A DNA stretch of 64,000 nucleotides. Source: an uncultured Chloroflexia bacterium (lineage in GTDB: Bacteria; Chloroflexota; Limnocylindria; Limnocylindrales; CSP1-4). The stretch spans positions 10,084 to 74,083 of the forward strand of contig CAVUKR010000004.1 of the NCBI GenBank assembly GCA_963742075.1. The letters are read 5' to 3'. Below the pieces are notes generated by a model. That model saw only the letters and a list, made by a program, of their open reading frames with translations. It searched no databases and was not told the DNA's origin. Shown here one piece after another: positions 5,527 to 53,824 of this stretch (positions are counted from its first letter, which is position 1; every line of letters starts with the position of its first letter). The translations under genes were made by a program, and so were the position numbers.

Positions 5527-5554
5527 TGGCAAATTCTTCGCCAATGTCACCCGG
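5527..5554 (+). repeat. Array repeat copy (23/28 match)
   Basis: Sequence tggcaaattcttcgccaatgtcacccgg. Its TGA on the minus strand is the stop of the upstream minus-strand ORF frame. Confidence 0.7.
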
Positions 5555-5962
5555 TATCCGATGTGCCCCATTCCCGGTGAAGCTCGTCCCAGGCCATCTG
5601 CGTCAACAGGCCGAACCAGGTCCGGAAACGCGCAGCGAATGACCAGCCATGAGTGTTCGACGCGACATTCCCGAGAGTCTCGAGGAGGCCGACCTTGAGC
5701 CGTATCGAACGCCGGCATCGCCTGTCCGAAGGTAGTGCTCGACGGTGGCAAAGACCGCCGGGAATTCGGCGGTGTCGGCCCGGTCGAGCAGCCCGACCAG
5801 GTGACGGGCGCACTCCCCAAGGTCGATGTAGACGCCACGCTCGCCGGGGTCCGGCCAGTCCGCAACGTAGTCACGCCACGGATCACGGAATGAAGGGCAT
5901 GCTTCAAGCAGCGCCGGGATGAGGACGCGATCGGGGTCGTGTGGTCCGGGCGGTTCCGTCAT
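5547..5962 (-). pseudogene. Immunity-like small protein, frame-shifted near 5700
   Basis: ATG 5962 overlaps the upstream stop (ATGA). The N-terminal part is MTEPPGPHDPDRVLIPALLEACPSFRDPWRDYVADW...ATVEHYLRTGDAGVR. The C-terminal part continues in the frame of ORF 5547..5813 (LKVGLLETLGNVASNTHGWSFAARFRTWFGLLTQMAWDEL). It is a paralog of 13893..14230. Confidence 0.5.
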
Positions 5963-6604
5963 TCGTCGCGACCTGGCCGCGAGCCATGGATCGGGTGCTC
6001 GGCCAGAACACGACGACGTAGATCGGCAGTCCGCTTGTGAGCCACGCTCGAGTCTCCCGTGGCGTCGAGGATCGCCTCGAAACGCCGCTCGCCAGCGGTC
6101 GTAGGTCGGCGTCCGTCGCACGATGTTCTCCATGCCTTGGGCATGCCGTACGCCAGGATTCGAGACGAAGTGGAAGCCGAACGACTCGGCCTTTTCGTCG
6201 ACGTCGTCGATGACCGCGAAGTCCCAGCGCAGCCAGCCGGGGTCTGACGGCATCTCGACCTCGGCCGGGAAGAAAGCGACCTCATCGCCAACGGAAAAGG
6301 GCGGGCCGGGCGGTTCCATGGCTTGGCGTTCGGGAATGTCACCCGAGGTCGTCGGCTCGATCGAAGCGATCGCCGAACCAGGAGCGTCCGGCGGCGTCGT
6401 ACTGGTGACCTCGCAGTGGTAGCAGCCATCGATTCCGTTGCCGCTGCGGTGCCAGTCGTGGCTTCCGCAATCCCTCGCCTTGGGTACGACCAACCCCAGT
6501 CGGTAGTACAGGACATCCGGCGTGTGGACCCGAAGCCACGCGCGCCATCGGGCATTGCGAAGGCTGAACGGGTAGTCGGCAACGTCTCGGTCTGACTGAG
6601 GCAC
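5959..6604 (-). CDS. Cys/His-motif protein (paralog of 12378..12608) with a C-terminal extension; probable frame change near 6090
   Basis: Leaderless signature TATCCT-GACGCC-GTG(6604). The N-terminus RDVADYPFSLRNARWRAWLRVHTPDVLYYRLGLVVPKARDCGSHDW...DGCYHC is about 80% identical to the second copy. The last part appears to continue in the frame that ends at 5959. Confidence 0.5.
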
Positions 6605-6629
6605 GGCGTCAGGATAGGTCGCGAACAGA

Positions 6630-6655
6630 TCGCAAAGCGTGCCTCAATGACACGG
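6630..6655 (+). repeat. Array repeat copy
   Basis: Sequence tcgcaaagcgtgcctcaatgacacgg, 25 nt from GTG 6604. Confidence 0.9.
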
Positions 6656-6671
6656 CGGGCGCAGTCGGCCG

Positions 6672-7490
6672 TCAATCCTGGTGATTTCGGGACTGCTCCC
6701 ATACGGCGACGATCGGCGGAAGGACTTCCACTATGAAACGTCGGGCGTCGTCAATCGAGGTCGGACCATGTGCGGTTGCCACTTCGAACACCGCGAGTCG
6801 ATCCGGCTCCGGTCCCGATAGCTGGATGGACCAAGATGGTTGCTCGACCCGCCAGACGAGGCCAGCGCGCTGACCGTCTGGTGCAATCACGTATGCGTCG
6901 CCAGTATGGTCAAGCGTGTCGAGCGACGATGTGATCAAACCGAGCCTCCAGCCCTCGGCTTCCACGCCATCGAGCACTGGGAACCCGTGGTAGACGGGGG
7001 CACCGGGCGGGGGCGCGAGAAACGCAGGGAGACGTGAATCAGCGGACTCGGCGGCGGTGTCCAGTGCGACCGGGTGACCAACCGTATCGAAGGGTCGGTC
7101 CGTTGGTGTCCAGGCTGGGAACGCCCCTCGAGCCTCGGGGACCGTTAGACGGCGCGTAGGAACGTCCTGACGACGGGGTCGCTTCTCCCCGCGACGGTCC
7201 GCCAGCAGCCACCGGGTGGCATACACGAACAATGCCAGGTCGAACGCGAGGAAGGCCCCGCCGACGAACAGCCGCCACTCGAGTTGCCCACGGACGTCGC
7301 CAGGGGAGTAGGTCACTGTCGGAAAGAAGACCCCCAGGACGAGGAAGACCATCGTCACGGGCCCAACGATCAAGAGCGCCTTCGCCGACGCGCGTCGTCG
7401 GACATAGGCATGGAACATACGCCAATAGGCGTCGTCGTCCATCTCTGTCCCTTTCGGACTCGGGGATCGTCCACCGCGTTCCAGCGACAT
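6672..7490 (-). CDS. Hypothetical membrane-anchored protein
   Basis: 272-aa ORF. The more likely start is ATG 7442, which has AAAGGGA 6 nt upstream. It has two TM helices followed by a soluble C-terminal domain. Confidence 0.6.
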   Translation of the reverse strand: MSLERGGRSPSPKGTEMDDDAYWRMFHAYVRRRASAKALLIVGPVTMVFLVLGVFFPTVTYSPGDVRGQLEWRLFVGGAFLAFDLALFVYATRWLLADRRGEKRPRRQDVPTRRLTVPEARGAFPAWTPTDRPFDTVGHPVALDTAAESADSRLPAFLAPPPGAPVYHGFPVLDGVEAEGWRLGLITSSLDTLDHTGDAYVIAPDGQRAGLVWRVEQPSWSIQLSGPEPDRLAVFEVATAHGPTSIDDARRFIVEVLPPIVAVWEQSRNHQD

Positions 7491-7526
7491 TCTCCGTCCG
7501 TACGACGGGGTGCGAGCGCCGCTTGG

Positions 7527-7553
7527 TCACTCAGTGTTCGCCAATAACACCAG
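7527..7553 (+). repeat. Array repeat copy, degenerate
   Basis: Sequence tcactcagtgttcgccaataacaccag, about 18/27 match to the consensus. Confidence 0.5.
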
Positions 7554-7595
7554 CACGTCACATGGTTGCGGCCCGCGCCTCCGGGGCTTTGGCGT

Positions 7596-8228
7596 TCAGC
7601 TGAGGAAGATCAGCGCGATTGCGATAGCGCTGGCCGCGACGACCGGTATCTGGAGCAAGCCGCTGCGCGAGATCTGCGCATGAGCGATCGCCTTCCCCGT
7701 CTGTTCATCGACGCCTCGCATCGCCCGAACCGCTGTCGCGCCGGTCGCGCCGATCGCGAGAGCGGACGCTCCACTGATCAGGCCGAGGATGACGAATGGC
7801 CAGTCAGTGAGGGCCTTCGTGGGTTCTTCGACGATGAAGAGCGCCAGCAATGCAACGACGATGCCAAGGACGACGACTTCGAGGATGTAGACGGCAGCGA
7901 GTGTCGATATCCGAGGATCGCCGACGCCCCGCTGGCGGGCAACGAGGGCGAGCCCGATGATGCCGCCAATCGCTGCAGGTCCAGCCGCCAAGAGTCCATC
8001 GGCCGGGTCCGTGACGTCGCCCGCGACAAAGATGGCCAGCAATCCGACGACCGTACCCAAGACGGCAGCGCCCAGGCAGAAGGCCATGAGGATCATCGCG
8101 AGACTTCGGCCCGTTGGGACCTGGCGGCTAACGACCGCTCCATCGGGGGGCCACGTGCCCGTGGAGATCAGACCGAGCGCGACGGCGGCCCCAAAGGAGG
8201 ATAAGCCAGTCATCAGCAGTGGGCCCAC
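7596..8228 (-). CDS. Hypothetical polytopic membrane protein
   Basis: 210 aa with about 6 hydrophobic helices. GAGAGG lies 6 nt upstream of GTG 8228. Confidence 0.6.
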   Translation of the reverse strand: MGPLLMTGLSSFGAAVALGLISTGTWPPDGAVVSRQVPTGRSLAMILMAFCLGAAVLGTVVGLLAIFVAGDVTDPADGLLAAGPAAIGGIIGLALVARQRGVGDPRISTLAAVYILEVVVLGIVVALLALFIVEEPTKALTDWPFVILGLISGASALAIGATGATAVRAMRGVDEQTGKAIAHAQISRSGLLQIPVVAASAIAIALIFLS

Positions 8229-8356
8229 GAAGAACCTCTCGACGGCGAGTGTCGGGCCAGCATAGCCACGCAGAGGCGCTCGATCAGCTTCGCCGTGCCA
8301 CCGCTTCGAGAAGGCCGCACAAACCGATCAGCTGACCGACGGAATATTCCCTGCCG

Positions 8357-8380
8357 TCACATAGCGTTCGTCAGTGACGC
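8357..8380 (+). repeat. Array repeat copy, degenerate
   Basis: Sequence tcacatagcgttcgtcagtgacgc, about 16/24 match. Confidence 0.4.
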
Positions 8381-8446
8381 TTGCTCTCGCCGGGCGCGCG
8401 GTCGGCCCATGCGCGACCGGGCGGGCTGGCGCGCCGTCTTCCTGCC

Positions 8447-8809
8447 ATGAAGGCGGTCGCCGGTCTGCTGCTCTGCTCACTCGTCGCGTGCTCCGCGGCG
8501 GGGGCTAGCGCCACGCCACCGATATCTGCCGAGGCAGCTCAGGCCGTGGCCCTCAGCAATGCCGGCTCGTCGACCCCACCGCGCGTCCTCTCGGTCCGGC
8601 TGTCCACCTACGGGCTGGAGACTTCCGGCGGGTTGGTCGTTGCCGCCGCCACACCGGTCTGGTCCGTTCTCATTGCCGGCTCCTTCCCGTCCTCCTGCGG
8701 CCCGTATACGGCCACCCCGCATCCCTGCCCGGCCCCAGCGACGACCGAGCGCGTGCTGGTCGACGCCAGAACGGGTTCCTTCATCGAGGGCGACATCCCG
8801 GGAACGTAA
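8447..8809 (+). CDS. Putative lipoprotein
   Basis: ATG 8447. MKAVAGLLLCSLVACSAAG is a signal peptide with a lipobox. Confidence 0.6.
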   Translation: MKAVAGLLLCSLVACSAAGASATPPISAEAAQAVALSNAGSSTPPRVLSVRLSTYGLETSGGLVVAAATPVWSVLIAGSFPSSCGPYTATPHPCPAPATTERVLVDARTGSFIEGDIPGT

Positions 8810-8839
8810 AGGGCCGGCCATGGCGAACGGAACGCGTGG

Positions 8840-8866
8840 TCGCAAAGCGTGCGCAGATGACACCAG
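8840..8866 (+). repeat. Array repeat copy
   Basis: Sequence tcgcaaagcgtgcgcagatgacaccag, lying between convergent ORFs. Confidence 0.9.
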
Positions 8867-8879
8867 AGATGGGCCCTGC

Positions 8880-9293
8880 TTAACGCTCGACGAGTTGGCA
8901 GGGACCGACGCCGCAGTAGACGCCAACCGCGACTCGCGTGCCATCAGCGAGGTCGAGCACGACTACGCCGACTGTCGAACTGCCCTCGGCGGTGCCGGGG
9001 ATGGACTCTTGGTAGAAGCCGTGGCCGACGATGGCCGCTGGGGCGACGCCTCGTTTGCTTGTCGCCGTATCTGTGGCGACTCGCAGATATTCATCGCATG
9101 TGGCATCAGCGTAGGCGGCGCAATCGAGGGGAGTTCCGAGCGTGTAGTGGTCGACCACCGTTCCTGATACAAGCGCGCCGCTTGCCGTCGATCCACCCGA
9201 GCATCCGGCGAGGACGATGGCTTGCATGAACACCATGAGTGCTAGAGCGCGGACTCGTGTCCGTTTGCGATTGTCCCGGCGAAGGGCCCTCAT
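8880..9293 (-). CDS. Putative lipoprotein
   Basis: Leaderless signature TACCCT-GAACTA-ATG(9293). The signal peptide ends in IVLAGCSGG. Confidence 0.65.
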   Translation of the reverse strand: MRALRRDNRKRTRVRALALMVFMQAIVLAGCSGGSTASGALVSGTVVDHYTLGTPLDCAAYADATCDEYLRVATDTATSKRGVAPAAIVGHGFYQESIPGTAEGSSTVGVVVLDLADGTRVAVGVYCGVGPCQLVER

Positions 9294-9318
9294 TAGTTCA
9301 GGGTACTGGCCGTTACAA

Positions 9319-9342
9319 TCGCATAGCGTGCTGGAACAACCC
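9319..9342 (+). repeat. Array repeat copy, degenerate
   Basis: Sequence tcgcatagcgtgctggaacaaccc. The first 13 nt are nearly perfect. Confidence 0.55.
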
Positions 9343-9393
9343 TAGAGAGTACCCACGGGACGTCCCGAAATCGGGACGACATCAAATCGATCG

Positions 9394-9744
9394 TCAGGGA
9401 GCCTGGCGACGCTCGACCTCTTCGAGCATCTCTCGCAGGATGTCAGCTTGATCGGTGGCCGACAGCAGATACGGGCCACGTCCTCGCAATGCCTCTCGCC
9501 GGCTCTGGATCCGGGTCCACTGACCATCGTCGCCCATCAGATCCACGCTCCACTCGTCCCGATCTCGCACGAGCCGTACGGCGACCGGTCGAGTCAGGAT
9601 GACCTCCTGGTTGCCGAAGGACTCGGAGTCGTAGCGGTCGCGCACAACCACGAAACCCCGGTCAGCAAGCCAAGACCGAAGATCGGCCATAACGGCATCG
9701 TCGGCTGTCCATCCGACGGCGCTCGGGTCCTTTCTGGAAGGCAT
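9394..9744 (-). CDS. Hypothetical small cytoplasmic protein (immunity-like)
   Basis: Leaderless signature TACCCT-N7-ATG(9744). 116 aa with no TM segment. Confidence 0.6.
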   Translation of the reverse strand: MPSRKDPSAVGWTADDAVMADLRSWLADRGFVVVRDRYDSESFGNQEVILTRPVAVRLVRDRDEWSVDLMGDDGQWTRIQSRREALRGRGPYLLSATDQADILREMLEEVERRQAP

Positions 9745-9770
9745 TGGGACGAGGGTACATCCCGGCCTGG

Positions 9771-9794
9771 TCAGTCAGCGTCCGCCGATGTCCC
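9771..9794 (+). repeat. Array repeat copy, degenerate
   Basis: Sequence tcagtcagcgtccgccgatgtccc, about 17/24 match. Its first 3 nt are the stop codon of ORF 9771..10094. Confidence 0.5.
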
Positions 9795-10094
9795 TTGAGC
9801 CGATGGCGTCCTCTCCGACACCGAGAGGAATACGCAGGTCGCGAGTGGACGTGCACCTTCGCGAAGCACGAGTCTCGCGTTTCGGGCGGAATCGGGCTGC
9901 GATCTCAGGAAGACTGCCAGGTACGAGCAGCCGCACGGTGCCTCGTCCGGAGTGGAGTGTGGGAGCGAGACGACCACGCTGAACGCGTCGCTAACCGGCT
10001 CTTGCTCAAACGTTGCGACGAGGCGGAGGGTCTCAGGCAATTGCCGAAGACTGTCTACCACCGTAACGGAGACGGTCGCCTCTGGATCGCGCAT
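9771..10094 (-). CDS. Hypothetical protein
   Basis: Leaderless signature TAGCCT-N8-ATG(10094). 107-aa ORF. Confidence 0.45.
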   Translation of the reverse strand: MRDPEATVSVTVVDSLRQLPETLRLVATFEQEPVSDAFSVVVSLPHSTPDEAPCGCSYLAVFLRSQPDSARNARLVLREGARPLATCVFLSVSERTPSAQGTSADAD

Positions 10095-10121
10095 GCGGTC
10101 TCAGGCTACCCGACCTTGGTG

Positions 10122-10244
10122 TCGCAAAGCGTGCGCGAATGTCACCCGGTCGCGTGCTGTCAAACCTAGCGGGATGTCGAGCCACGTCGATGCGGCCATG
10201 CCGGCTCGGGCGAACCAATCTGCCGGGAGGGAAACCTATGATCG
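10122..10244 (+). repeat. Extended 123-bp repeat, copy A (starts with the 28-mer at 10122-10149)
   Basis: About 90% identical to 15570..15693, with about 11 substitutions and one 1-nt indel. Confidence 0.9.
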
Positions 10245-10267
10245 CAAAGCGTGCGCCAATGACACAT
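10242..10267 (+). repeat. Array repeat copy
   Basis: Sequence tcgcaaagcgtgcgccaatgacacat, directly abutting extended copy A. Confidence 0.9.
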
Positions 10268-10364
10268 GACCGTGCGGCCCGCTGTGATGGTTGCAGTCGG
10301 CCCTTGACGAGGTTCTGGAGCGGGCACACGATCGTGCGGACAGCGACCCGCGCAGGGGGCCAAC

Positions 10365-10583
10365 TTGGGCGATCTGGAACGGATGCTCGATCTATACGGA
10401 CCGCTCTGGATCATGATGATGCTCTGGATCGGGCTTGCGGGCGCCGTCGCAATCGCCGCGGGCCGACGGGGCTACAACCAATACATCTGGTTTTTTGGAT
10501 GCCTGGTGCTATCCCCGCTCATCGGTTTCGTGCTCCTGGCACTGCTCACTCCCGGACGCGGAGGCCCTCATCGGCCAGCCTGA
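10365..10583 (+). CDS. Small two-TM membrane protein
   Basis: The start is TTG 10365 or ATG 10383. The product is MLDLYGPLWIMMMLWIGLAGAVAIAAGRRGYNQYIWFFGCLVLSPLIGFVLLALL. Confidence 0.55.
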   Translation: MGDLERMLDLYGPLWIMMMLWIGLAGAVAIAAGRRGYNQYIWFFGCLVLSPLIGFVLLALLTPGRGGPHRPA

Positions 10584-10632
10584 CCGCGCACGTCACTGGT
10601 GACCAACGTTTATCGGCGACGTTGCCGCATCG

Positions 10633-10660
10633 TCGCAAAGCGTGCGTCAATGTCACCCGG
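10633..10660 (+). repeat. Array repeat copy
   Basis: Sequence tcgcaaagcgtgcgtcaatgtcacccgg, followed by tcgcgcg as in the extended repeat. Confidence 0.9.
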
Positions 10661-10707
10661 TCGCGCGATCGACATGGGACCCCAGAATGTCTAGCAGCGT
10701 CGGAAGG

Positions 10708-11175
10708 TCAGCTAACACGGCCGACCTGAAAGTCGCCCGTGGCGGCCTCAACGAAGCCTTCCTCCGTCAGCCGGGTCTCCATAAGGGGCAGGCCGCGCTC
10801 GATCACAACTGCAACGATCTGGGCCGTCAGGCGATCGAGGTCCGTGCATGCGTCAAGGTCCCACCAATGGTCTTCCCCGTCGTCGATCAGCTCGCCAATC
10901 CGCAGCTGCCAGCTGCAACGATAGGAAGGCGGCTTCCGACTCGGATCGTGACCCTGGGCAGCTAAGACACGGTCAAGCCCAACCCCGATATTGATTGTGA
11001 ATCGCACGTGAGCCCGTGAACCGAACTGAGACTTCTGGAAGTTGACGACCCCCCAGCCGTCCGCTCCGCGTCGATGAAAGCTCGAACCGGTCTTGGTCAA
11101 TCCGCGTCCGCGTAGGGCCGGCGCGATGTCGGTCGTCAACCACCCTGCAAATCGTTCAACGGCTGTGTCAGGCAT
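10708..11175 (-). CDS. DUF4304-like protein
   Basis: The pattern APALRGRGLTKTGSSFHRRGADGWGVVNFQKSQFGSRAHVRFTINIGV matches DUF4304 as I recall it. AGAGGG Shine-Dalgarno upstream of ATG 11175. Confidence 0.75.
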   Translation of the reverse strand: MPDTAVERFAGWLTTDIAPALRGRGLTKTGSSFHRRGADGWGVVNFQKSQFGSRAHVRFTINIGVGLDRVLAAQGHDPSRKPPSYRCSWQLRIGELIDDGEDHWWDLDACTDLDRLTAQIVAVVIERGLPLMETRLTEEGFVEAATGDFQVGRVS

Positions 11176-11267
11176 GGCGGTTGCCCTCTATCGCATTCAA
11201 TCGACAAGCGGGCCACGAGTGTACGAGCCCGGACTTGTGTCACGTCTCGTGATACAGCGTCTATCTA

Positions 11268-11293
11268 TCGCAAAGCGTGCGCCAATAACGCTT
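11268..11293 (+). repeat. Array repeat copy
   Basis: Sequence tcgcaaagcgtgcgccaataacgctt. Confidence 0.85.
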
Positions 11294-11353
11294 GAGGTCG
11301 TGCGACCAAGGCGTGGGATCTATCGGCCGATGACGATGGATATCCGTACTGAC

Positions 11354-11713
11354 CTATTCGTGAATCCCAGCGAGAGCAAGGACGCCAACGAGGATAAGTA
11401 CCACGACAAGGACACCTCCCGTGACCAATACCGCCAGCAGCCGCTCATCCATGACTGGCTGACTGGGATATCCAAGATGACGGGCGATGAGCCACGCGCC
11501 CACGACCGTGACAGCGATCACTGCGCCAGCGTTACTCGGCGCTGCGACTGCGACCAGCACCGCCAAAGAGCCCAGGCCGAGCATGATCAGAAGCCGGAGA
11601 ACCACTGGCTTCCCGAGGGTGAGTCCTGCACGCCGAGCAGCGAAGAGGGCGCCGGTGATGGCGACCACTCCAACCAACGTCGCGCCGAGGAGGACGAAGA
11701 CCTCTCGACTCAC
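11354..11713 (-). CDS. Small membrane protein (4 TM)
   Basis: 119 aa and hydrophobic. GTG 11713 overlaps the stop of the upstream small ORF (GTGA). Confidence 0.6.
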   Translation of the reverse strand: MSREVFVLLGATLVGVVAITGALFAARRAGLTLGKPVVLRLLIMLGLGSLAVLVAVAAPSNAGAVIAVTVVGAWLIARHLGYPSQPVMDERLLAVLVTGGVLVVVLILVGVLALAGIHE

Positions 11714-11868
11714 GGGATCGGGCTCGCCTTGCAGTCATCTACAGCCACGACGATTGGCAGGGCAGCCGCAAGACAGACACAGATCAGACCCGGAGCCACC
11801 AGGCGCAGCGTCCCAGCCAAGGGGTCATCCATCAGCACGACGATATCCCGCGTCCGATGTGCGGGCAA
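11710..11868 (-). CDS. Candidate 52-aa single-TM peptide, translationally coupled
   Basis: Below the ORF-track size cut-off. TAGCCT-N9-TTG(11868). The product ...LRLVAPGLICVCLAAALPIVVAV... ends with its stop overlapping the next start. Confidence 0.3.
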   Translation of the reverse strand: MPAHRTRDIVVLMDDPLAGTLRLVAPGLICVCLAAALPIVVAVDDCKASPIP

Positions 11869-11909
11869 CGATCAGGCAGGCTACGCCACGAAGAGACACG
11901 GGCCTTTGG

Positions 11910-11936
11910 TCGCAAAGCGTGCGCCAATGTCACCAG
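11910..11936 (+). repeat. Array repeat copy
   Basis: Sequence tcgcaaagcgtgcgccaatgtcaccag. Confidence 0.9.
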
Positions 11937-11958
11937 ATCGACGACGGCAAGCTTGCTT

Positions 11959-12294
11959 CTATCGGGCGATCACGACGACGATCACGGCAAGCGACAGCAC
12001 CAGTGCAGCCACCAGAGCGCTCGTGAGCCATTTGGAGCGAGGCCGATCTCGAGTCAACCAGTACGCCGCGAAGCCGGCCGACGCTGCGGCGAGCACGAGG
12101 CCCAACGCCTCGGGTGCCGGCCCTTGGAGCAGGACTGCCAGCACGACCATGACGACCGCCAGCCCAACGAACAATCGAGCGAGCCACGGGCTGGCATCGA
12201 CAACCGCCTCGCGCCCGCCGCGTTGCCAGATTGGGAAGACGACGACCATGGCGGTCACGACCATCGTCACGAGGGCGGCGTAGGCGTAGGCCAC
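11959..12294 (-). CDS. Small membrane protein (about 4 TM)
   Basis: Leaderless signature TATCCT-CTTGCC-GTG(12294). The hydrophobic product is the C-terminal part of ORF 11959..12552. Confidence 0.5.
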   Translation of the reverse strand: MAYAYAALVTMVVTAMVVVFPIWQRGGREAVVDASPWLARLFVGLAVVMVVLAVLLQGPAPEALGLVLAAASAGFAAYWLTRDRPRSKWLTSALVAALVLSLAVIVVVIAR

Positions 12295-12335
12295 GGCAAG
12301 AGGATACGCACAGTCCGCAGACAGATGAGCTGCCG

Positions 12336-12363
12336 TCTGACAGAGTGCGCCGATAACGCCAGA
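12336..12363 (+). repeat. Array repeat copy, degenerate
   Basis: Sequence tctgacagagtgcgccgataacgccaga, about 18/28 match. Confidence 0.4.
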
Positions 12364-12377
12364 GTCTGATGGGCAGG

Positions 12378-12608
12378 CTACCCAGAGGGCGTCGCGGGCC
12401 TCGGCCTCGTGACATCGCGGTGGTAGCAGCCGTCGAGTCCGTGGCCCTTGTTGCGCCAATCGTGGCGCCCGCAATTGCGAGCCTTGGGCACCACCAATCC
12501 CAGACGGTAGTACAGGACATCGGGCGTGTGCACCCGAAGCCAGGTGCGCCATCGAGCATTCCGAATGCTGAACGGATAGTCAGCAACGTCGCGGGCTGGG
12601 TCTGACAT
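12378..12608 (-). CDS. Cys/His-motif small protein (paralog of the 6604 N-terminus)
   Basis: Leaderless signature TATGCT-GAGGCC-ATG(12608). The product contains RDVADYPFSIRNARWRTWLRVHTPDVLYYRLGLVVPKARNCGRHDW...DGCYH. Confidence 0.6.
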   Translation of the reverse strand: MSDPARDVADYPFSIRNARWRTWLRVHTPDVLYYRLGLVVPKARNCGRHDWRNKGHGLDGCYHRDVTRPRPATPSG

Positions 12609-12633
12609 GGCCTCAGCATAGGTGTCGGCCAGA

Positions 12634-12661
12634 TCGCAAAGCGTGCGTCAATGTCACTTGG
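12634..12661 (+). repeat. Array repeat copy
   Basis: Sequence tcgcaaagcgtgcgtcaatgtcacttgg. Confidence 0.9.
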
Positions 12662-12723
12662 CAGTACGGGCGAACCCGCGTTCCAGGGTCGTCGAGGCTG
12701 TCTGGAAAGGAAGGTTGGTGGGG

Positions 12724-13173
12724 CTACCGAGCGGCTTGGCTCACACCCCACGCGATCAGAACGACAACAGCCACCAATCCGACGATCAGCAGCACGCCAG
12801 CCAGCGTGCCCAGATAGTCCACGAAGGGTTCAGTCACCGCCGCCCCGATGTCATCTTGCGGACCTGTCGAGGTCACGGTGCGGGACAGACGAGTCAGGAA
12901 GCGGAGCACGATGGCGAGGTAGATGCCGCCGCCGATGACCAACCCCGCTCCCAGGAGTGGCTCGGTCGCCAGCATTTGGAGTCCGACCCACGGGAGCACG
13001 ATCGCGCCGATCAGTGTCGGCACGAACATCAACCATACGAACTGACCCTGCCGAGCCATCACGCGACGAGCTGCGCAGTGGCGCACGCCGACCAGCAGTA
13101 CCACAACGGCGATCGCGACGAGGACGGGTGTCTCCATCGCGGGAAGTGTCCATCGGGAGAAGCCGCGAATCAA
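12724..13173 (-). CDS. Hypothetical membrane protein (4 TM)
   Basis: 149-aa hydrophobic ORF. The start is TTG 13173 or ATG 13137. Confidence 0.6.
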   Translation of the reverse strand: MIRGFSRWTLPAMETPVLVAIAVVVLLVGVRHCAARRVMARQGQFVWLMFVPTLIGAIVLPWVGLQMLATEPLLGAGLVIGGGIYLAIVLRFLTRLSRTVTSTGPQDDIGAAVTEPFVDYLGTLAGVLLIVGLVAVVVLIAWGVSQAAR

Positions 13174-13260
13174 TCGCGCGACGGGCCCCTCGCCTTGCGG
13201 TGTCGGCGGGCACCCGAAGCCCGATGAGCGGGAAGGGACACCCGGCAGACCTCTCTGCTA

Positions 13261-13288
13261 TCCATCAGTGTCCGTTAATGTCACCCGG
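13261..13288 (+). repeat. Array repeat copy, degenerate
   Basis: Sequence tccatcagtgtccgttaatgtcacccgg, 19/28 match. The 3' half is perfect. Confidence 0.55.
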
Positions 13289-13411
13289 GCCGTCTCACGC
13301 CCTATGTATGGAATGCGCACGTGGACTCGACCCCCGGCGCAAGGTCCGCAATCAGATCGTGAAGTAGTCGCCCTCGGAGGATCCGTGGGAACGCGGAGGG
13401 GAGACGACTGG

Positions 13412-13930
13412 GTGTCCAAGCCGATCGGGCGCGGGATCGTGGTGGTGGCGTTGGCCGCAGCCGCTCTCCTCGTCGGCATCGTGATCATCCCTCGCATGGA
13501 AAACGTCTTCGCGGGCGCGGCTGGCATTCATGACGCCGCGTCGCTACCCGAGCAGATCAACATCTGCGGGCGCAGTTGGAGCAAAGACGCGTTGAACCGC
13601 GAGTTCAGCCTGGCCGAGATCCGGGCGCGGGACGGCATCGAGCCCGTCGTCGTGGACCCTGGACTGTTCGCGTCGTGCCCGGCCGGGCCGTGCACGACGC
13701 TGGCTCAGAGCGGTCCCTGCGATACCGTGATCTGCGTGCGCGTCGGCGAGGATGCTTACCTTGACTATGCGCTCCAAGGCAGACAGTACGCGCACGCCGC
13801 CAGAGCACGTGATAGCGAAGTTGACCGAGTCGGTGGCCGTAGCGAAATATCCTTGGCTCCGCCCAGCTTGATCCTGAGCGACACGAGCCGGTTCAGGCGG
13901 TCGAGCGGGGACAGGTTCTCGGCAAGGTGA
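13412..13930 (+). CDS. Membrane-anchored Cys-rich hypothetical protein
   Basis: GGAGGGGAG lies 8 nt upstream of GTG 13412. It has a signal-anchor helix followed by ...ICGRSWSKDAL...CPAGPCTTLAQSGPCDTVICVRVGEDAYLDYALQG. The C-terminal tail may be read-through. Confidence 0.5.
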   Translation: MSKPIGRGIVVVALAAAALLVGIVIIPRMENVFAGAAGIHDAASLPEQINICGRSWSKDALNREFSLAEIRARDGIEPVVVDPGLFASCPAGPCTTLAQSGPCDTVICVRVGEDAYLDYALQGRQYAHAARARDSEVDRVGGRSEISLAPPSLILSDTSRFRRSSGDRFSAR

Positions 13931-14230
13931 TGGATCGAAGCGACAGGTCCTCGAGGTTAGTCAGGAGCGAAAGCACCTCGATGCGCTTCGCTGACCACGA
14001 GGTGAAGGATTCGAGTCCTCGGAACCGATCTGGGAGCGTCAGGTGCCAGCCTTGCTTTCGGCCGGCGCGATATCGAGGTACACGAGGGGCCGTACCCAGA
14101 TGGCCTCGGCCTGGTGGGCTCGCCACGCATTCTTGAACGAGGGGCATGCGGCCACAAAGGCGGACATCACCGGCCCCGACTGGGCTTGATGCTGGTTCTC
14201 GCTGACCGGGCCGTCGCCCACATCACCCAT
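13893..14230 (-). pseudogene. Immunity-like protein remnant (paralog of 5547..5962), frame-shifted
   Basis: Leaderless signature TATCTT-GCGACG-ATG(14230). The motif FVAACPSFKNAWRAHQ parallels LLEACPSFRDPWRDY. Coding-like sequence continues in the frame of ORF 13893..14147. Confidence 0.4.
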
Positions 14231-14255
14231 CGTCGCAAGATACGGCACCGTCGAG

Positions 14256-14284
14256 TCGCAAAGCGTGCGGGAATGTCATCCGAG
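14256..14284 (+). repeat. Array repeat copy
   Basis: Sequence tcgcaaagcgtgcgggaatgtcatccgag. Confidence 0.9.
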
Positions 14285-14438
14285 CGCTTTGGAGCCCAAT
14301 GCGCGGTAGGACGAGGCCGTGGACACGATCGTGGCGGAGACTCGGCGCAGTCGCCAAAGAGGCTCTCGCGCCGGTCCAGTACTCTCGGCCCAACAGGAAG
14401 TTGGGCGACTCGGGCAGGAACGGAGCGTGAGACCGTCC

Positions 14439-14783
14439 ATGGTCGATACCTACGGTGGCGGCCTCTTCGTGGCCACGTGTGCCGTCTCGTTCTTCGTGTT
14501 GTTCTCGACGATCCTCTCCAGCCTGTTTGTTCCCGTGGATCGGCTCACCTCGATGCCAACGTGGTATCGGACACTGACCATCCCGAGGCGAACCCGCCCG
14601 GTGCTCCTGTACTACAAGGCGGCGTGCTCCGTGTTCCTGATCCTGAGCCTGACACTGCCGCTGTTCGTGCTCCTCAAGTGGGACCAGGTCGGGGCCCAAG
14701 ACCATGTCGCCGGGGCGGCGAGTTGGATCGGGATCCTGATCTGGTCCGCCGTTCTCTGGAGGACGGTCGGCGGGGTTCGGTAG
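14439..14783 (+). CDS. Small membrane protein (about 4 TM)
   Basis: ATG 14439 lies within ORF 14319..14783. The product begins MVDTYGGGLFVATCAVSFFVLFSTILSSLFV... Confidence 0.5.
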   Translation: MVDTYGGGLFVATCAVSFFVLFSTILSSLFVPVDRLTSMPTWYRTLTIPRRTRPVLLYYKAACSVFLILSLTLPLFVLLKWDQVGAQDHVAGAASWIGILIWSAVLWRTVGGVR

Positions 14784-14803
14784 GTCGCACTTTGTCGGTC
14801 GTG

Positions 14804-14830
14804 TCGCAAGGCGTGCGCCAATGTCACCCG
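14804..14830 (+). repeat. Array repeat copy
   Basis: Sequence tcgcaaggcgtgcgccaatgtcacccg. Confidence 0.9.
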
Positions 14831-14909
14831 AGGACTCAGGGCTCGACCTGCACATGAGCCGATGAGGTCATCAGGTGGCTTTGACCTGGGCGGCATAGTC
14901 CGCGGGCTG

Positions 14910-15395
14910 TCAGCCGGTGTTCGGTGGGTACTCGCCCACCCAGTACTGCTTGATCGCGACGCCCCGCGCCCGAAGTTCGACGAACAGTTCGCGGATCCGG
15001 GGCCGGGGCCAATAGCCAAGGGTCAGCCGGGTCACGGGCACGCCATCGCGTGTCAGCCGCAACGAGGCGATGTTCTCGAGGGTGAACTCGGCCTGCGTCC
15101 GCCCGTCGAGCGCAAGCACGACGCCCGGCCGCTGGAGCAGGACCTCGATCCAGCGCCGCACCACGACCGTGTCGTCGGAGAACGTCAGCTCGCGCTGGAT
15201 GTAGAGCCAGCCGCCGTCGATGAACAGAAACGCGAACGCGGCCATCACTACGACCAGGAACCCGACCCACCACTGCTCGGTGCCTACCCGCAGCGTCGCC
15301 ATACCCCGAACGGCGACCACCACCCCGGCCACGCACACCACGACAAAGAGGATCGGCCCCGGTTGGGGCGCTGGTGGATTGACGCGCGTCGTCAC
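14910..15395 (-). CDS. Membrane protein with a soluble C-terminal domain
   Basis: GTG 15395 overlaps the stop of the upstream small ORF (GTGA). It has two TM helices and then ...LYIQRELTFSDDTVVVRRW... Confidence 0.55.
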   Translation of the reverse strand: MTTRVNPPAPQPGPILFVVVCVAGVVVAVRGMATLRVGTEQWWVGFLVVVMAAFAFLFIDGGWLYIQRELTFSDDTVVVRRWIEVLLQRPGVVLALDGRTQAEFTLENIASLRLTRDGVPVTRLTLGYWPRPRIRELFVELRARGVAIKQYWVGEYPPNTG

Positions 15396-15541
15396 GTCGC
15401 GTCTGCTCCGGCGATCCCGCTCCCGGCAGAGATGACCTCGCTCGACAGGGCCCTCATACCGAACGCATCCTCGACGATGCTGCCTGTTGCCGGTCCGTCG
15501 GCCAGGACCGCCATTGAACCGACCATTACGAAGACACGCAT
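15392..15541 (-). CDS. Candidate 49-aa leaderless small ORF
   Basis: TACCAT-N9-ATG(15541), located 13 nt after the repeat. The product is MRVFVMVGSMAVLADGPATGSIVEDAFGMRALSSEVISAGSGIAGADAT. GC3 is about 75% by hand count. Confidence 0.3.
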   Translation of the reverse strand: MRVFVMVGSMAVLADGPATGSIVEDAFGMRALSSEVISAGSGIAGADAT

Positions 15542-15569
15542 CTGGAGTCCATGGTACGGGTCGTTCTCG

Positions 15570-15693
15570 TCGCAAAGCGTGCGCGAATGTCACCCGGTCG
15601 CGCGCTGTCAAACCTAGCCGGATGTCAAGCCACGTCGATGCGGCGAGGCCGGCTCGGCGCGAACCAAGTTGCCGGGCAAGAAACCTATGATCG
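15570..15693 (+). repeat. Extended 124-bp repeat, copy B (starts with the 28-mer at 15570-15597)
   Basis: About 90% identical to 10122..10244. Confidence 0.9.
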
Positions 15694-16288
15694 TGGAGTG
15701 AACATCTTCCAGATCGTCCTCGTTCTTGCCGTCTTGATCCTGTGGCTCTTACTCCTCAACTCGTGGCGGTTGAGGAACTGGCGGGCAGTAACCTTGGGTG
15801 CGGTTGGGACGATCGTGTTCCTGGCCGCCGGGATGCTTCCCAGCTCGGTCCGGGAAGTGGCTCAACCTGGCATCTGTTTCGTGTTCGTGTGGGTCTTCCT
15901 GTTCCGGCCGGGGCTCGTCGGCGTGATGCCCCCGGAGGAGTACGACTATGTCGATGCGCACATCCAGATCTTGCGGCGGATCGATCGGCGGAAGCACGCC
16001 TCCGATCGACCCGACCCGACGACCGCTCTCCGCGAATACGAGTCGGACGTACGATCGCTCGAAGCACTCGACGCGCCGCTGGCATGGTCGAAACTCCACC
16101 GGGACACGGTTCGAGAGCTGGAGCGACGATTGACCGCCATGAAGGCAGGAACGCTGCGGTCCCCTGAAGACTTGCGGCCATTTGACGACCGCTGGCTCGA
16201 GGTCGGGCAACTCTTCCGGGACACCCTGAGGGCCAGGGCTGGGTTCTGGACTGGCTGGCCCCATTTGGTCCGACGCTCGGGGTCGTAG
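15689..16288 (+). CDS. Membrane protein with a helical cytoplasmic C-terminal domain
   Basis: GTG 15689 starts VNIFQIVLVLAVLILWLLLLN... The same frame is also open back to the ATG inside the 28-mer. Confidence 0.55.
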   Translation, partial: DRGVNIFQIVLVLAVLILWLLLLNSWRLRNWRAVTLGAVGTIVFLAAGMLPSSVREVAQPGICFVFVWVFLFRPGLVGVMPPEEYDYVDAHIQILRRIDRRKHASDRPDPTTALREYESDVRSLEALDAPLAWSKLHRDTVRELERRLTAMKAGTLRSPEDLRPFDDRWLEVGQLFRDTLRARAGFWTGWPHLVRRSGS

Positions 16289-16297
16289 ACAGCGTCA

Positions 16298-16325
16298 TCG
16301 CAATGCGTGCGCCAATGTCACCTGG
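16298..16325 (+). repeat. Array repeat copy
   Basis: Sequence tcgcaatgcgtgcgccaatgtcacctgg, 10 nt after stop 16288. Confidence 0.9.
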
Positions 16326-16401
16326 CGAGCTTCGTCGACGGATAGGCAGCCTGTGGCAAGCTCTGGCGCTGAGACTCGGGAGCTTTCAACCAACTCTGCG
16401 G

Positions 16402-16428
16402 TCAGACAGCGTCCGCCAACGTCGCCTG
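16402..16428 (+). repeat. Array repeat copy, degenerate
   Basis: Sequence tcagacagcgtccgccaacgtcgcctg, about 19/27 match. It resembles the copy at 9771. Confidence 0.45.
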
Positions 16429-16566
16429 ACATGATCGACCGTCGACAGCCAGGACCTCGTAGGGCGGCCCCGGTGCCCCGGCCGGACAATGAACCGTCAC
16501 GTATCGGCGCTGCTTAGGCACGGCGTCTCGGCACGCGCTGCGGTCACGATCCCGAGAAGCGTCCAT
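16402..16566 (-). CDS. Candidate 54-aa leaderless ORF (possibly a remnant)
   Basis: TACCCT-CGGCGC-ATG(16566), located 13 nt after repeat 16592. The stop lies inside degenerate repeat 16402. Confidence 0.25.
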   Translation of the reverse strand: MDASRDRDRSACRDAVPKQRRYVTVHCPAGAPGPPYEVLAVDGRSCQATLADAV

Positions 16567-16591
16567 GCGCCGAGGGTACAGCGCCCCGGCA

Positions 16592-16618
16592 TCGCAAAGC
16601 GTGCGTCGATGACGCCAG
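16592..16618 (+). repeat. Array repeat copy (right-most)
   Basis: Sequence tcgcaaagcgtgcgtcgatgacgccag. Confidence 0.9.
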
Positions 16619-17264: not shown

Positions 17265-17266
17265 GG

Positions 17267-51896: not shown

Positions 51897-52148
51897 TGGC
51901 TTTTGGGTGCTGCACCCTGTGCACCGCCGCCTGTGCCGAATGCTCGCGATAGCCGCGGCCGCACGAAGCCGAAGATCAGGCTAGTCGGTAGCCGACGCGG
52001 CCGCTCGAAGCGCTACGCTCCAGCCGGGAAGCTTGGACGGTTGGCGCTCTCGCCAGGACGACCCGATCGGCAGGCGCGTCTGCGGGTTCGGAGCGATCTC
52101 AACCGACGTTTCGCTGACGTACGCAAATACCGCTCGAGGTTGGGGCCT

Positions 52149-52577
52149 CTAGAACATCCCGTTGTCGTTCTTCGTGTCTGCCGGATCGGGCACGACCTGG
52201 AGGACGTCCCAGTGTTCGACGATCTTGCCGTTGTCGTCGAACCGGAAGATGTCGATGCCCGCATAGTCGTGGTCGCCCGGCCAGTGCTGGTAGCAGTGGA
52301 GGACCACGTAGTCATCCTCGGCGATGGCGCGTTTCACGTCGACCCGCTTGCCGGGGTACTCGCGAGCCATGCGGTCGAAGTAGTCGATGAATGCGTCCTT
52401 GCCGTCACCCACGCCGGGGTTGTGCTGCCGGTAGTCCGCGCCGGTGTATCGCTCCTGTGCCTCTCGCGGCTGGTTGTCGTTGAACATCAGCTCGTAGAAA
52501 TCGATCGCGGTGTGCTTGTTCGCCTGCGGATCGCTCAATGGGCATTCCTCCGGGATCGGCTCGGTCCACGAGCTCAC
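52149..52577 (-). CDS. SnoaL-like / NTF2-family protein
   Basis: 142 aa. Contains ...[24 protein letters not shown]...[18 protein letters not shown]. Confidence 0.85.
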
Positions 52578-52663
52578 GGTTGGTCAGGCGCGGGGCGGCG
52601 ATGACCCTTGGGTCACCCCATCCGCTCGACGCCCACGGCGGCGTCGCCACGCGGGGGCATCGA

Positions 52664-53095
52664 ATGGCGCTGTGTTCAACCGGCGACGGGGTATTCCCGC
52701 CGAAGACCTGCGCCCTGCCGGCGGGGACGTACTCCGCGGCCCCGTTCGCACCGGTCTTCCGGTTCACGATCGGTGCCGGCTGGTCGAACACCCTCGCGGG
52801 CATCAACGCGGGCGGTATCGTCATGGGCAAACCGGACACGACGGGGTTCGGCTGGTCGACCGGGATGATGGCCGAAGATGGCTCCAATGTCGGAAAGACG
52901 ACCGATACGCTCCTCGCCTATTTCGCGTCGCAGCCGAGCATCTCGGTGTCGGCTCCGACCCCGGTCATCGTGGGCGACATACCACGTCTCGCGATCGACT
53001 TCACCTTGCGCAACGGAGCGGATCTTCAGGAAGCGGAGAAGAACGAGGTCAGTACGAGGTTGGAGAGAAGGTGCGCGCCATCATCGTGGACGTGA
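52664..53095 (+). CDS. Hypothetical protein, possibly a truncated fragment
   Basis: ATG 52664. No signal peptide. The 3' end overlaps a convergent gene. Confidence 0.3.
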   Translation: MALCSTGDGVFPPKTCALPAGTYSAAPFAPVFRFTIGAGWSNTLAGINAGGIVMGKPDTTGFGWSTGMMAEDGSNVGKTTDTLLAYFASQPSISVSAPTPVIVGDIPRLAIDFTLRNGADLQEAEKNEVSTRLERRCAPSSWT

Positions 53096-53446: not shown

Positions 53447-53824
53447 CCGTGATGCGGCCGGTCCCCGCGGTCAAGCCTCATGTTCGGGTCAGGCGTCGTG
53501 CCGTCGGCGCCGGCCGGCGTGCTCTGGGTGGTCGTCATCAGGACGGTATCGCGACTGGTTTATGGAAGCATGACGTGGATAGGATCGGTTCGACCCTCGC
53601 CAGCCAGCTACCACGGGTAGGCTCCTCGCGGGTGGCGCCAGCCACGCCGGGTACCCGTCGAAGAGCGCCCGGCCATCCGTGCTCTGATCGCCGAGTCCGA
53701 TCCACGCCGTCAGGTGGCTCTATCCCGCAACCCAGCCGGGGGTCCATGGGGATCTTCCACGGCAATTCGCGCGCCAGGCGTCGGCGCGTACGCGATCCGC
53801 GACCAGGTTTACCCTTACGCGGTC

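Follow-up and report, generated by a model that had tools for sequence, protein, structure and literature searches.

A strictly co-oriented intergenic repeat as a candidate boundary site of gene-cassette arrays in soil Chloroflexota

Introduction

Integrons are the textbook gene-capture system. A complete integron combines the intI tyrosine recombinase with an attI site at the head of the array, and integrase-less arrays are known as CALINs (Cury et al. 2016, PMC4889954). The attC sites are imperfect inverted repeats (R''-L''...L'-R') of 57-141 nt, which fold into hairpins and contain a GTTRRRY core (PMC4889954). Further arrays built from a recombinase and a repeat, with sites and mechanisms still undefined, are hinted at by the rAID-1 (recombinase-associated acquired interbacterial defence) clusters of Bacteroidales, whose defining feature is a XerD-family tyrosine recombinase next to the array, immediately upstream of it (Ross et al., bioRxiv 10.1101/471110; 10.1101/2025.05.03.651265). 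Heterogeneous polyimmunity loci (Zhang et al. 2012, PMC3482391) sometimes adjoin XerC/D recombinases; when they were described, extended ones were known only from proteobacteria, bacteroidetes, firmicutes and actinobacteria.

Here we analyse a repeat array of a Chloroflexota genome, found in a 64-kb window, by which we mean the whole stretch of DNA under study. The array shares with integrons and CALINs the succession of gene and recombination site with all sites co-oriented, as well as diverse, mostly orphan cassettes of about 0.5 kb, the content of which varies among relatives at a fixed chromosomal locus (PMC4889954). It differs from them in having no attC hairpin, R/L boxes, GTTRRRY core or IntI, and in displaying a promoter-like arrangement at each junction instead of the single Pc promoter at the array head of integrons. 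With rAID-1, judging from the available text, it has in common arrays of short genes (roughly 100-300 codons) whose GC is skewed, a repeated motif between the genes that is conserved and 'reminiscent of integrons', and content that varies between strains (10.1101/471110; 10.1101/2025.05.03.651265). The content of rAID-1 clusters includes orphan immunity genes; in the arrays studied here only a few explicit immunity-type matches occur among or next to the cassettes. Against the same partial description, our locus has no adjoining XerD-family recombinase, belongs to Chloroflexota and not Bacteroidota, is of high and not low GC, has about one fifth of its genes reversed and carries many cassettes encoding enzymes or membrane proteins in place of recognisable immunity proteins; split-promoter geometry and leaderless starts are not among the features described for rAID-1 there. 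The polyimmunity loci, in what is available of their account, are likewise tandem, mostly co-oriented sets of unrelated small genes that vary between strains, whereas the conserved boundary site found here is not described for them in that portion (PMC3482391). Immunity function has been shown for none of the Chloroflexota cassettes.

Results

The element, which reads TCGCAAAGCGTGCGCCAATGTCAC on the plus strand, is present in 22 copies, all 22 on that strand and all within 5527-16615 (Table 1); its functional reading, E_rc, is on the minus strand and corresponds to GTGACATTGGCGCACGCTTTGCGA. When both strands of the 64 kb were scanned with a 34-nt weight matrix, 22 sites scored at least 23 bits, every one on the plus strand and together spanning 5523-16621, while the next best score elsewhere on either strand was 7.7 bits. 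At three mismatches or fewer the 24-nt consensus matches the window 12 times and shuffled sequence not once, and the chance expectation for the 22 copies is none. The element logo was built from 197 copies; the minus-strand site consensus is (T)CnG-GTGWCATTnnCGCACGCTTTGCGA, with a conserved part of just 24-27 nt.

The anatomy of the array is directly observed. GC content is 61-65% over most of the array (6-17 kb; 68% at 8-9 kb) against approximately 68-74% in most of the remaining window. An internal duplication of 125 nt relates 15569-15693 to 10121-10244 at 91% identity. In the other 53 kb the element occurs only as decayed copies around another cassette pair, near 52110, 52584 and 53520. 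The window's only Rfam matches at gathering score, a tRNA and a TPP riboswitch, lie beyond the array. A CRISPR array, in which repeats of 24-48 nt alternate with spacers of about 30-40 nt, is ruled out by the repeat spacing of 104-2074 nt and by the protein-coding intervals.

The original prediction had noted nine copies of the element, at either end of plus-strand modules. All of them are genuine, but they are only part of the array. The copies at 8840, 10633, 14804 and 16298 have 1-3 mismatches to the 24-nt consensus and lie, at exactly the coordinates given, 31, 50, 21 and 10 nt past the stops of the plus-strand ORFs 8381-8809, 10365-10583, 14319-14783 and 15551-16288. Among the remaining five, those at 10242, 14256 and 15570 are strong matches, and those at 8357 and 13261, degenerate with 7-8 mismatches (30.7 and 27.6 bits), are clearly real.

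Table 1. Element copies and arrays in the 64-kb window
Feature	Coordinates	Strand	Remarks
Whole cassette array	5527..16615	-	22 co-oriented elements and ~21 cassettes, ~11 kb
Element copy, degenerate	5527..5550	-	24.5 bits
Element copy, degenerate	6319..6342	-	23.4 bits; within read-through ORF 5603-6604
Element copy	6630..6653	-	then N13-TATCCT and leaderless GTG at 6604
Element copy, degenerate	7527..7550	-	upstream of minus-strand gene 6672-7490
Element copy, degenerate	8357..8380	-	between divergent genes 7596-8228 (-) and 8381-8809 (+)
Orphan element copy	8840..8863	-	between convergent genes 8381-8809 (+) and 8880-9293 (-); no -10 box
Element copy, degenerate	9319..9342	-	then N13-TACCCT; upstream of 8880-9293 (-)
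Element copy, degenerate	9771..9794	-	then N13-TACCCT; upstream of 9394-9744 (-)
Element copy	10122..10145	-	then N13-TAGCCT; upstream of 9771-10094 (-)
Orphan element copy	10242..10265	-	edge of 96-nt ORF-less mini-cassette 10146-10241
Orphan element copy	10633..10656	-	between convergent genes 10365-10583 (+) and 10708-11175 (-); no -10 box
Element copy	11268..11291	-	then N13-TATCAC; upstream of DUF4304 gene 10708-11175 (-)
Element copy, perfect consensus match	11910..11933	-	upstream of 11354-11713 (-)
Element copy, degenerate	12336..12359	-	upstream of membrane-protein gene 11959 to ~12297 (-)
Element copy	12634..12657	-	then N13-TATGCT-N6-ATG; upstream of 76-aa gene 12378-12608 (-)
Element copy, degenerate	13261..13284	-	upstream of 12724-13173 (-)
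Element copy	14256..14279	-	then N13-TATCTT; upstream of 14039-14248 (-)
Orphan element copy	14804..14827	-	between convergent gene 14319-14783 (+) and minus-strand gene with stop at 14910; no -10 box
Element copy	15570..15593	-	then N13-TACCAT; part of 125-nt duplication 15569-15693
Orphan element copy	16298..16321	-	10 nt past stop of plus-strand gene ending 16288; no -10 box
Element copy, degenerate	16402..16425	-	31.5 bits
Element copy	16592..16615	-	then N13-TACCCT; first array copy in minus-strand reading direction
Satellite mini-array	52110..53540	-	pair of minus-strand SnoaL-like genes, 52149-52577 and 53081-53446; 91-93% identity to cassettes of L022 and L025

Read on the minus strand, 43 of the 197 copies have TANNNT at offset 13, against a background of 0.47 per offset, and a start codon follows 6-7 nt past the box in 28 of these 43. 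The phasing of the -10 box relative to the element is fixed. The TTGCGA end of the element is just 13 nt from TANNNT, compared with 16-18 nt for canonical sigma-70 spacing; canonical promoters of that class (TTGACA-like -35, 16-18 nt, TATAAT-like -10) number 0 in 5000-17500 versus 1.6 expected, and the element was rejected as one of them. We take it to supply the upstream half of a split promoter serving leaderless genes, its role in activating transcription being inferred in the absence of transcription data.

A -10 box is present with 34 of the 79 forward cassettes but with just 3 of the 23 reverse ones. As had been predicted, the copies at 8840, 10633, 14804 and 16298 lack the minus-strand N13-TANNNT arrangement, which is also missing at 10242 (hexamers TCGCCA, TCGCCG, GTGCGA, GACCCC and TCCCGG). 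Copies unable to drive a co-oriented gene are conserved as well as those able to, with a median score of 38.2 bits for elements preceding reversed cassettes and 35.9 bits for promoter-type copies.

For comparison we assembled 47 loci, each with two or more copies, from Chloroflexota MAGs, where arrays reach 13 copies per 8 kb, and from soil metagenomes. Co-orientation is strict: mixed orientation was observed in none of the 47. The cassettes scored for orientation, with a median length of 528 nt, comprise 79 in forward and 23 in reverse orientation, 22 being ambiguous.

Turnover of cassettes at the site is likewise a matter of observation. Related genomes have flanking genes in common and different cassettes, with homology breaking inside the element or at its end. 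In three genomes a flank of approximately 90-92% identity ends in ...GCACGCTT(TG) and gives way to unrelated cassettes, and the successor of one cassette (C) is D in L014 and L027 but H in L038. The locus of our array is syntenic with L115, L084 and L072, which hold different cassettes, and the SnoaL two-gene unit, 91-95% identical among the window, L022 and L025, occupies three different contexts. Metagenome population variants agree up to the last base of the element (L075/L088 at 99.8%, L075/L098 at 100% identity), beyond which L075 is unrelated to the other two, which agree with each other. Such contigs could in principle be chimeric at repeats.

A turnover sample was drawn from element pairs alike only in the flank 5' of the element in the minus-strand reading. 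Its 10 stringent pairs differ at 0.8 and 0.7 positions in the two element halves, as opposed to 2.6 and 2.2 in matched background pairs, and their identity falls to background from the first base past GCGA. The breakpoints could not be resolved to a single nucleotide. In a looser junction sample each half of the element, 5' or 3', tends to keep company with the flank on its own side, which suggests that breakpoints may vary along the element; such variation would fit homologous recombination. Comparative genomics had been proposed as a check for module shuffling, and relatives with flanks of 90-96% identity do hold different cassettes. The module-boundary role put forward in the original prediction is supported by these differences and by the homology blocks that start and stop in the element.

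The diversity of the cassettes is equally evident. The 121 cassette proteins fall into 107 clusters, of which 95 are singletons with no relative in the set, and the repeat is therefore no leftover of tandem gene duplication. Of the 104 cassette proteins scanned against Pfam, most have no family and some are enzymes; matches among or next to the cassettes include Imm1, Barstar, Tdi1 (Tdi1_C), MafI2, DMP19 and SnoaL, all but the last of these making up the few explicit immunity-type matches. Small membrane proteins and lipoproteins are also encoded, and toxin-antitoxin neighbours are present. This content suggests that the arrays take part in conflicts with other bacteria or with phages.

A Pfam comparison of the main ORFs of the 64-kb window, about 50 in number, gave no integrase, resolvase or transposase. 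There is no recombinase less than 10 kb from the arrays of L135 and L136, and the 25 commonest Pfam families of 123 ORFs flanking arrays include no recombinase family; the sole recombinase seen was a large serine recombinase in L008. Neither the element nor its logo has visible dyad symmetry of the kind present in tyrosine or serine recombinase core sites. Folded as a consensus, 13 copies with their 40-nt flanks form a stem of only 4 bp, a reverse-complement partner of the element is not seen above 8 bits anywhere in the window, and the element contains no GTTRRRY/RYYYAAC core. Xer/dif modules (pdif, IMEX) were considered and rejected on the lack of dyad symmetry in the logo and on the arrangement of all sites as direct repeats; a Xer/dif site is 28 bp long, with two 11-bp inverted arms round a 6-bp spacer, and pdif modules lie between oppositely oriented sites.

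Discussion

What could be the nature of this repeat? We interpret it as the boundary site of a chromosomal gene-cassette array, integron-like or rAID-1-like, with a new site and no linked integrase, and rate the chances of this being correct as slightly better than even. The site is short, unstructured and of the double-strand type, and a cassette usually consists of one small gene, in either orientation, and one copy of the site, which for co-oriented genes lies 3' of the gene it travels with, as attC does. Cassettes would be gained, lost and reordered by recombination, either inside the site or at the TTTGCGA with which it ends, the most likely agent being a recombinase encoded elsewhere in the genome and short-homology recombination being the alternative. 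The recombination mechanism is unproven, and site-specific and short-homology recombination are not distinguishable from these data. That a recombinase binds the site is inferred, as is the movement of cassettes in the form of circles, since neither a circular cassette nor an excision junction was observed.

Another possibility is that the element acts solely as a promoter or operator, bound by an activator or an alternative sigma factor that governs an island of small genes, with no dedicated recombination system. Cassette differences would then arise incidentally, as repeated promoters undergo homologous recombination, deletion or gene conversion with one another. We regard this as unlikely, though by no means negligible. 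The strongly non-random N13-TANNNT-N6/7-start geometry, the lack of canonical -35/-10 promoters in the array, the missing linked recombinase and the absence of dyad symmetry all speak for it, and the association of halves with flanks in the looser sample is what distributed crossovers would produce; moreover, at 24-27 bp the element is near the minimum for RecA-type exchange. It leaves unexplained, however, why each reversed gene keeps a co-oriented copy of its own where it meets its convergent neighbour, why orphan copies without a -10 box are equally conserved, why none of the 47 arrays is of mixed orientation, why 95 unrelated singleton genes stand behind one and the same site, and why the element is missing from the other 53 kb save for the decayed copies. 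The earlier statement that the element is 'not simply a promoter' holds as regards the boundary role, but a promoter role at co-oriented genes, inferred from the fixed geometry, is real too, and the statement cannot be extended to 'not a promoter'.

The original prediction also allowed that orphan copies might be antisense promoters firing into the 3' ends of reversed genes. These copies are indeed fully conserved and aimed at the 3' ends of plus-strand genes, and the idea is not excluded; it is not favoured because they have no -10 box. TANNNT is missing from 20 of the 23 elements preceding reversed cassettes, as against its presence with 34 of the 79 forward ones, nothing indicates that initiation is possible without it, and cassette turnover would be left unexplained, all of which makes this reading quite improbable to us. 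We can hardly credit a classical integron array without integrase, with the repeat as part of attC: repeats of one orientation that separate short and diverse genes, mostly without annotation and lower in GC, speak for it, but it is contradicted by the mere 4-bp stem, the lack of a reverse-complement partner and of the core motif, the conservation of 24-27 nt only and the failure to find IntI among the ORFs scanned in the window.

If the repeat is a cassette boundary, as we prefer to think, its promoter-like geometry may have a place in the same system. A co-oriented cassette would supply its own TAyCCT -10 box exactly 13 bp past the site, with the start codon a further 6-7 nt on, giving a leaderless mRNA, and any cassette junction or circularised cassette would consequently rebuild a complete promoter. 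In IS911 and IS30 circles a promoter is assembled on joining of the two ends of the mobile unit, and in activator-dependent promoters without a -35 box, exemplified by the T4 MotA box, 12±1 bp from the -10, and by mycobacterial PafBC/RecA-NDp, the place of that box is taken by a conserved element lying a short and constant distance ahead of TAnnnT. The likeness of our element to IS-circle junctions and MotA/PafBC-type promoters is in geometry only; to our knowledge, neither a transposase nor a cognate activator is known for it.

The boundary site is sharply defined here (24-27 bp, 197-copy logo), with natural variants differing exactly at the site, and it occurs in abundance in soil members of the Chloroflexota, a phylum that is large but has received little study. 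Arrays of this kind would escape IntegronFinder-type searches. If confirmed, they would represent a second, mechanistically different route to cassette accumulation and a way of expressing each cassette independently, and PCR that uses the site as a handle could recover the pool of cassettes present in these uncultured bacteria. We put forward more tentatively, as a conjecture somewhat likelier to fail than to hold, that soil Chloroflexota possess an undescribed cassette-capture system in which one double-stranded 27-bp site is both the crossover site of a recombinase encoded elsewhere and a split-promoter half, every captured gene being expressed autonomously and leaderless wherever it lands. 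If true, this would be a functional integron without attC hairpins, linked IntI or a single Pc promoter.

Copies and conservation of the element

The 24-nt element that bounds the small-gene cassettes of the array has the plus-strand consensus TCGCAAAGCGTGCGCCAATGTCAC in the window. With at most three mismatches allowed, 12 copies are found there and none in 100 shuffles. A weight matrix made from 20 copies and applied at a cut-off of 23 bits recovers 22 sites between 5523 and 16621, every one on the plus strand, the best remaining score on either strand being 7.7 bits. All coordinates assigned to element copies in the original prediction proved correct, and the four copies it had described as following plus-strand genes without the N13-TANNNT geometry (8840, 10633, 14804 and 16298) do lie 31, 50, 21 and 10 nt past the ORF stops and do lack that geometry on the minus strand. 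The array has a GC content of 61–65% over most of its length, whereas most of the window is at about 70%.

We give the element in its minus-strand reading, E_rc (GTGACATTGGCGCACGCTTTGCGA), with E numbers for its positions, since roughly two thirds of the cassette genes run in that direction. A logo built on 197 non-identical copies, collected from the window, from MAGs and from metagenomes, lengthens the site to TCnG-GTGWCATTnnCGCACGCTTTGCGA and marks E2, E4, E9, E10, E13, E16, E19 and E20 as variable. Alignment folding gives no hairpin of the element beyond a 4-bp stem, no dyad symmetry was found in it, Rfam has no match inside the array, and string searches for the motif in the searchable literature returned unrelated primers only.

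When one genome per species was scanned for the exact pattern, multi-copy element loci were detected only in Chloroflexota MAGs ('uncultured Chloroflexia', Candidatus Limnocylindrales). By this distribution, the window comes from a high-GC member of the Chloroflexota. Metagenomes supplied dozens more contigs with co-oriented arrays, mostly from soil samples if their unchecked identifiers are taken at face value; phage-borne arrays are absent from IMG/VR, where single matches occur at chance level only.

Promoter geometry and orientation

In the minus-strand reading a TAnnnT box, in most cases TAyCCT, stands 13 nt downstream of the element. This offset is found in 43 of the 197 copies (background 0.47 per offset), and a further 14 copies have the box at offsets 11–12; a start codon stands 6–7 nt past the box in 28 of the 43. 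Judged by sequence, the arrangement is that of a leaderless-mRNA promoter in which the element covers about -49 to -26. The array contains no canonical TTGACA-17-TATAAT promoters and no excess of terminators. Other assignments were considered: TGGCGCACGCTTTGCG on the minus strand has the GG-N10-GC spacing of a sigma-54 promoter, a reading rejected because the would-be GG falls on E9-E10, the most variable pair in the logo, and both a SigB/SigF-like GTTT-N13-GGGTA and a CRP-like GTG-N9-CAC show suggestive spacing, mismatch the conservation pattern and remain speculation.

Each plus-strand gene in the window has its own co-oriented copy where it meets its convergent neighbour, and these copies lack the -10 box. 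Of the 124 cassettes across all loci, 79 hold a gene co-oriented with the element and 23 a gene in reverse, with 22 ambiguous; the -10 box goes with 34 of the 79 forward cassettes and only 3 of the 23 reversed ones. Elements before reversed cassettes are nevertheless conserved as well as promoter-type copies (median score 38.2 versus 35.9 bits, copies below 20 bits being left out). Mixed orientation is seen in none of the 47 loci with at least two copies.

Cassette turnover

The module shuffling expected of a boundary element is evident among relatives, which share flanks, carry different cassettes and break at the element. Three comparison loci (L014, L025 and L038) have in common a flank with xanthine-dehydrogenase-like and PPDK-like genes (about 90–92% identity), which terminates in a degenerate element, ...GCACGCTT(TG); beyond it the three sequences are mutually unrelated. 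Cassette C is followed by cassette D in L014 and L027 and by cassette H in L038, the break lying directly after ...TTTGCGACC. The window array itself has a methyltransferase as its left neighbour (protein 81% identical in L115) and, to its right, a small unannotated gene (16854-17264; counterpart in L072) and an E1-beta gene (counterpart in L084). The locus is conserved across these four sequences, and the cassettes between the flanks differ. Further breaks come from population variants in soil metagenomes. L075:1-533 is 99.8% identical to L088:1468-2000, and L075:376-533 is 100% identical to L098:1-158; each of these stretches stops at the last base of an element, past which L075 carries one cassette and the two other contigs another. 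L075 and L088 also have their cassettes in different order.

Two SnoaL-like genes make up a 1.4-kb unit, bounded by elements that have decayed in the window, which recurs in three different contexts at 91–95% identity (window 52118-53520, L022 and L025). The few ordinary flank genes that the window has in common with L028 or L031 reach only about 72–73% DNA identity, which suggests that the unit may have been transferred recently; this is an inference, made without a genome-wide measure of how far the window has diverged from L022 or L025.

Ten stringent element pairs whose only common flank is the one 5' of E_rc differ by 0.8 and 0.7 mismatches in the two element halves, against 2.6 and 2.2 in the matched background, and their identity falls to background level from the first base past GCGA. 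In these pairs the whole element is inherited together with its 5' flank, which places it 3' of the gene it travels with for co-oriented genes, as attC is. In pairs with only the 3' flank in common, homology starts right after GCGA or within TTTGCGA, and a looser junction sample has a gradient from 5' to 3', with which variable crossovers would be compatible too. According to all three analyses, the junction lies within the element or at its 3' end. Its nucleotide remains unresolved, and a site-specific enzyme cannot therefore be distinguished from short-homology recombination.

Cassette content and neighbouring genes

Most cassette proteins belong to no Pfam family. The matches include Imm1, Barstar, DUF6188 (three proteins), DUF4265, DUF4279, DUF4304, DUF6193, DUF6881 and SnoaL, together with enzymes (amine oxidase, LLM oxidoreductase, PHB depolymerase, APH); Tdi1_C, MafI2 and DMP19 are found within or next to other arrays, and small membrane proteins and lipoproteins abound among the window's cassettes. 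The 121 cassette proteins form 107 clusters, 95 of them singletons, which rules out tandem duplication of a gene family: the repeats are not left over from duplicating one gene with its promoter.

Among 5.8 billion proteins, one recurrent cassette protein, 76 aa long and Cys/His-rich, has just 19 relatives. Its gene at 12378-12608 is duplicated, at 81% DNA identity, by the N-terminal ~76 aa and promoter of a 333-aa ORF with DUF7674 in its C-terminal part, apparently two cassettes fused by read-through. Another duplication comprises an element and some 100 nt of non-coding DNA (10121-10244 and 15569-15693, 91% identity). It ends in a further element at 10242, and at 15690 in no more of the element than 'ATCG', followed directly by a plus-strand gene; an ORF-less mini-cassette is one possible reading, a 5' leader common to both copies another. 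In an element-less lineage (L137, also L138-L140), a homologue of the 76-aa protein sits inside a four-gene block just upstream of a metE-like gene; the ~115-nt direct repeats flanking the block in L137 (5005-5120 and 6925-7040) could stem from another mode of insertion or from duplication of a leader.

Coordinates of individual features (window positions unless a locus is named)
Feature	Position	Strand	Remarks
333-aa ORF	5603-6604	-	spans decayed element at 6319
Duplicated segments of 333-aa ORF and 76-aa gene	6393-6653 and 12397-12657		
VapC (PIN) / Phd-YefM pair	17267-17997	-	directly beside array head
TPP riboswitch	37036-37142	-	ordinary; upstream of NMT1/THI5-like gene (35847-36947)
Decayed mini-array	52110-53540		two SnoaL-like genes, GC 65%; eroded element copies at about 52110, 52584 and 53520; 91-93% identity to cassettes of two other Chloroflexota genomes; ~3 kb downstream of tRNA-Gln gene (49045-49119)
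1300-aa protein	55637-59539	+	tandem zinc ribbons (DNA repeat at 55997-56118), adenylate/guanylate cyclase domain, AAA_16 ATPase domain
Large serine recombinase (Resolvase + Recombinase domains) and rolling-circle Rep-like protein	L008 1929-4527		~1-3 kb upstream of array

By Pfam, the main ORFs of the 64-kb window, which comprise metabolic genes and a toxin-antitoxin pair adjoining the array, include no integrase, resolvase or transposase. No recombinase is present among the 25 most frequent Pfam families of 123 array-flanking ORFs at other loci or within 10 kb on each side of the small arrays of L135 and L136, and none appears consistently among the direct neighbours of the largest arrays or in 20-kb contexts. 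The sole recombinase seen near any array, at L008, is probably part of an independent integrated element together with its Rep-like neighbour. Toxin-antitoxin pairs are common in chromosomal integron arrays; at L104 a pair of small ORFs similar to that of the window adjoins the element, putatively a ribbon-helix-helix antitoxin and a PIN toxin as read from their sequences without a Pfam scan.

Discussion

What could be the nature of an element that is both part of a predicted promoter and a boundary between cassettes? The main rival interpretation holds it to be a promoter or operator and nothing more, whose repetition merely permits recombination. The promoter-like spacing belongs to this reading as well; it leaves unexplained, however, both the conserved co-oriented copies without a -10 box around reversed genes and the strict polarity of the arrays. 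These same observations uphold the original prediction that the element, flanking modules whatever the gene direction, is not simply a promoter.

Known recombination sites do not account for it either. The element is not an attC site, as alignment folding yields no hairpin and it has no inverse partner in the window. For Xer/dif, GCGTGCGCCAATGT bears a weak likeness, with a gap, to the E. coli XerC arm and spacer; the XerD arm and dyad symmetry are absent. The closest described systems are integrons and CALINs (PMC4889954), heterogeneous polyimmunity loci (PMC3482391) and rAID-1 clusters, in which skewed GC goes with a conserved motif between the genes and with an XerD-like recombinase next to them (10.1101/471110; 10.1101/2025.05.03.651265). 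Integrons are defined by attC and IntI, and the array fails both tests; it likewise fails the adjacent-recombinase test by which rAID-1 is defined.

The best-supported interpretation, its mechanism still to be shown, is that of an integron-like array whose cassettes are separated by a new site, which at the same time forms the upstream half of a split promoter. In this view the stretch from -49 to -26 would come from the site, and the -10 box and leaderless start from each co-oriented cassette itself, such that any junction would rebuild a promoter.
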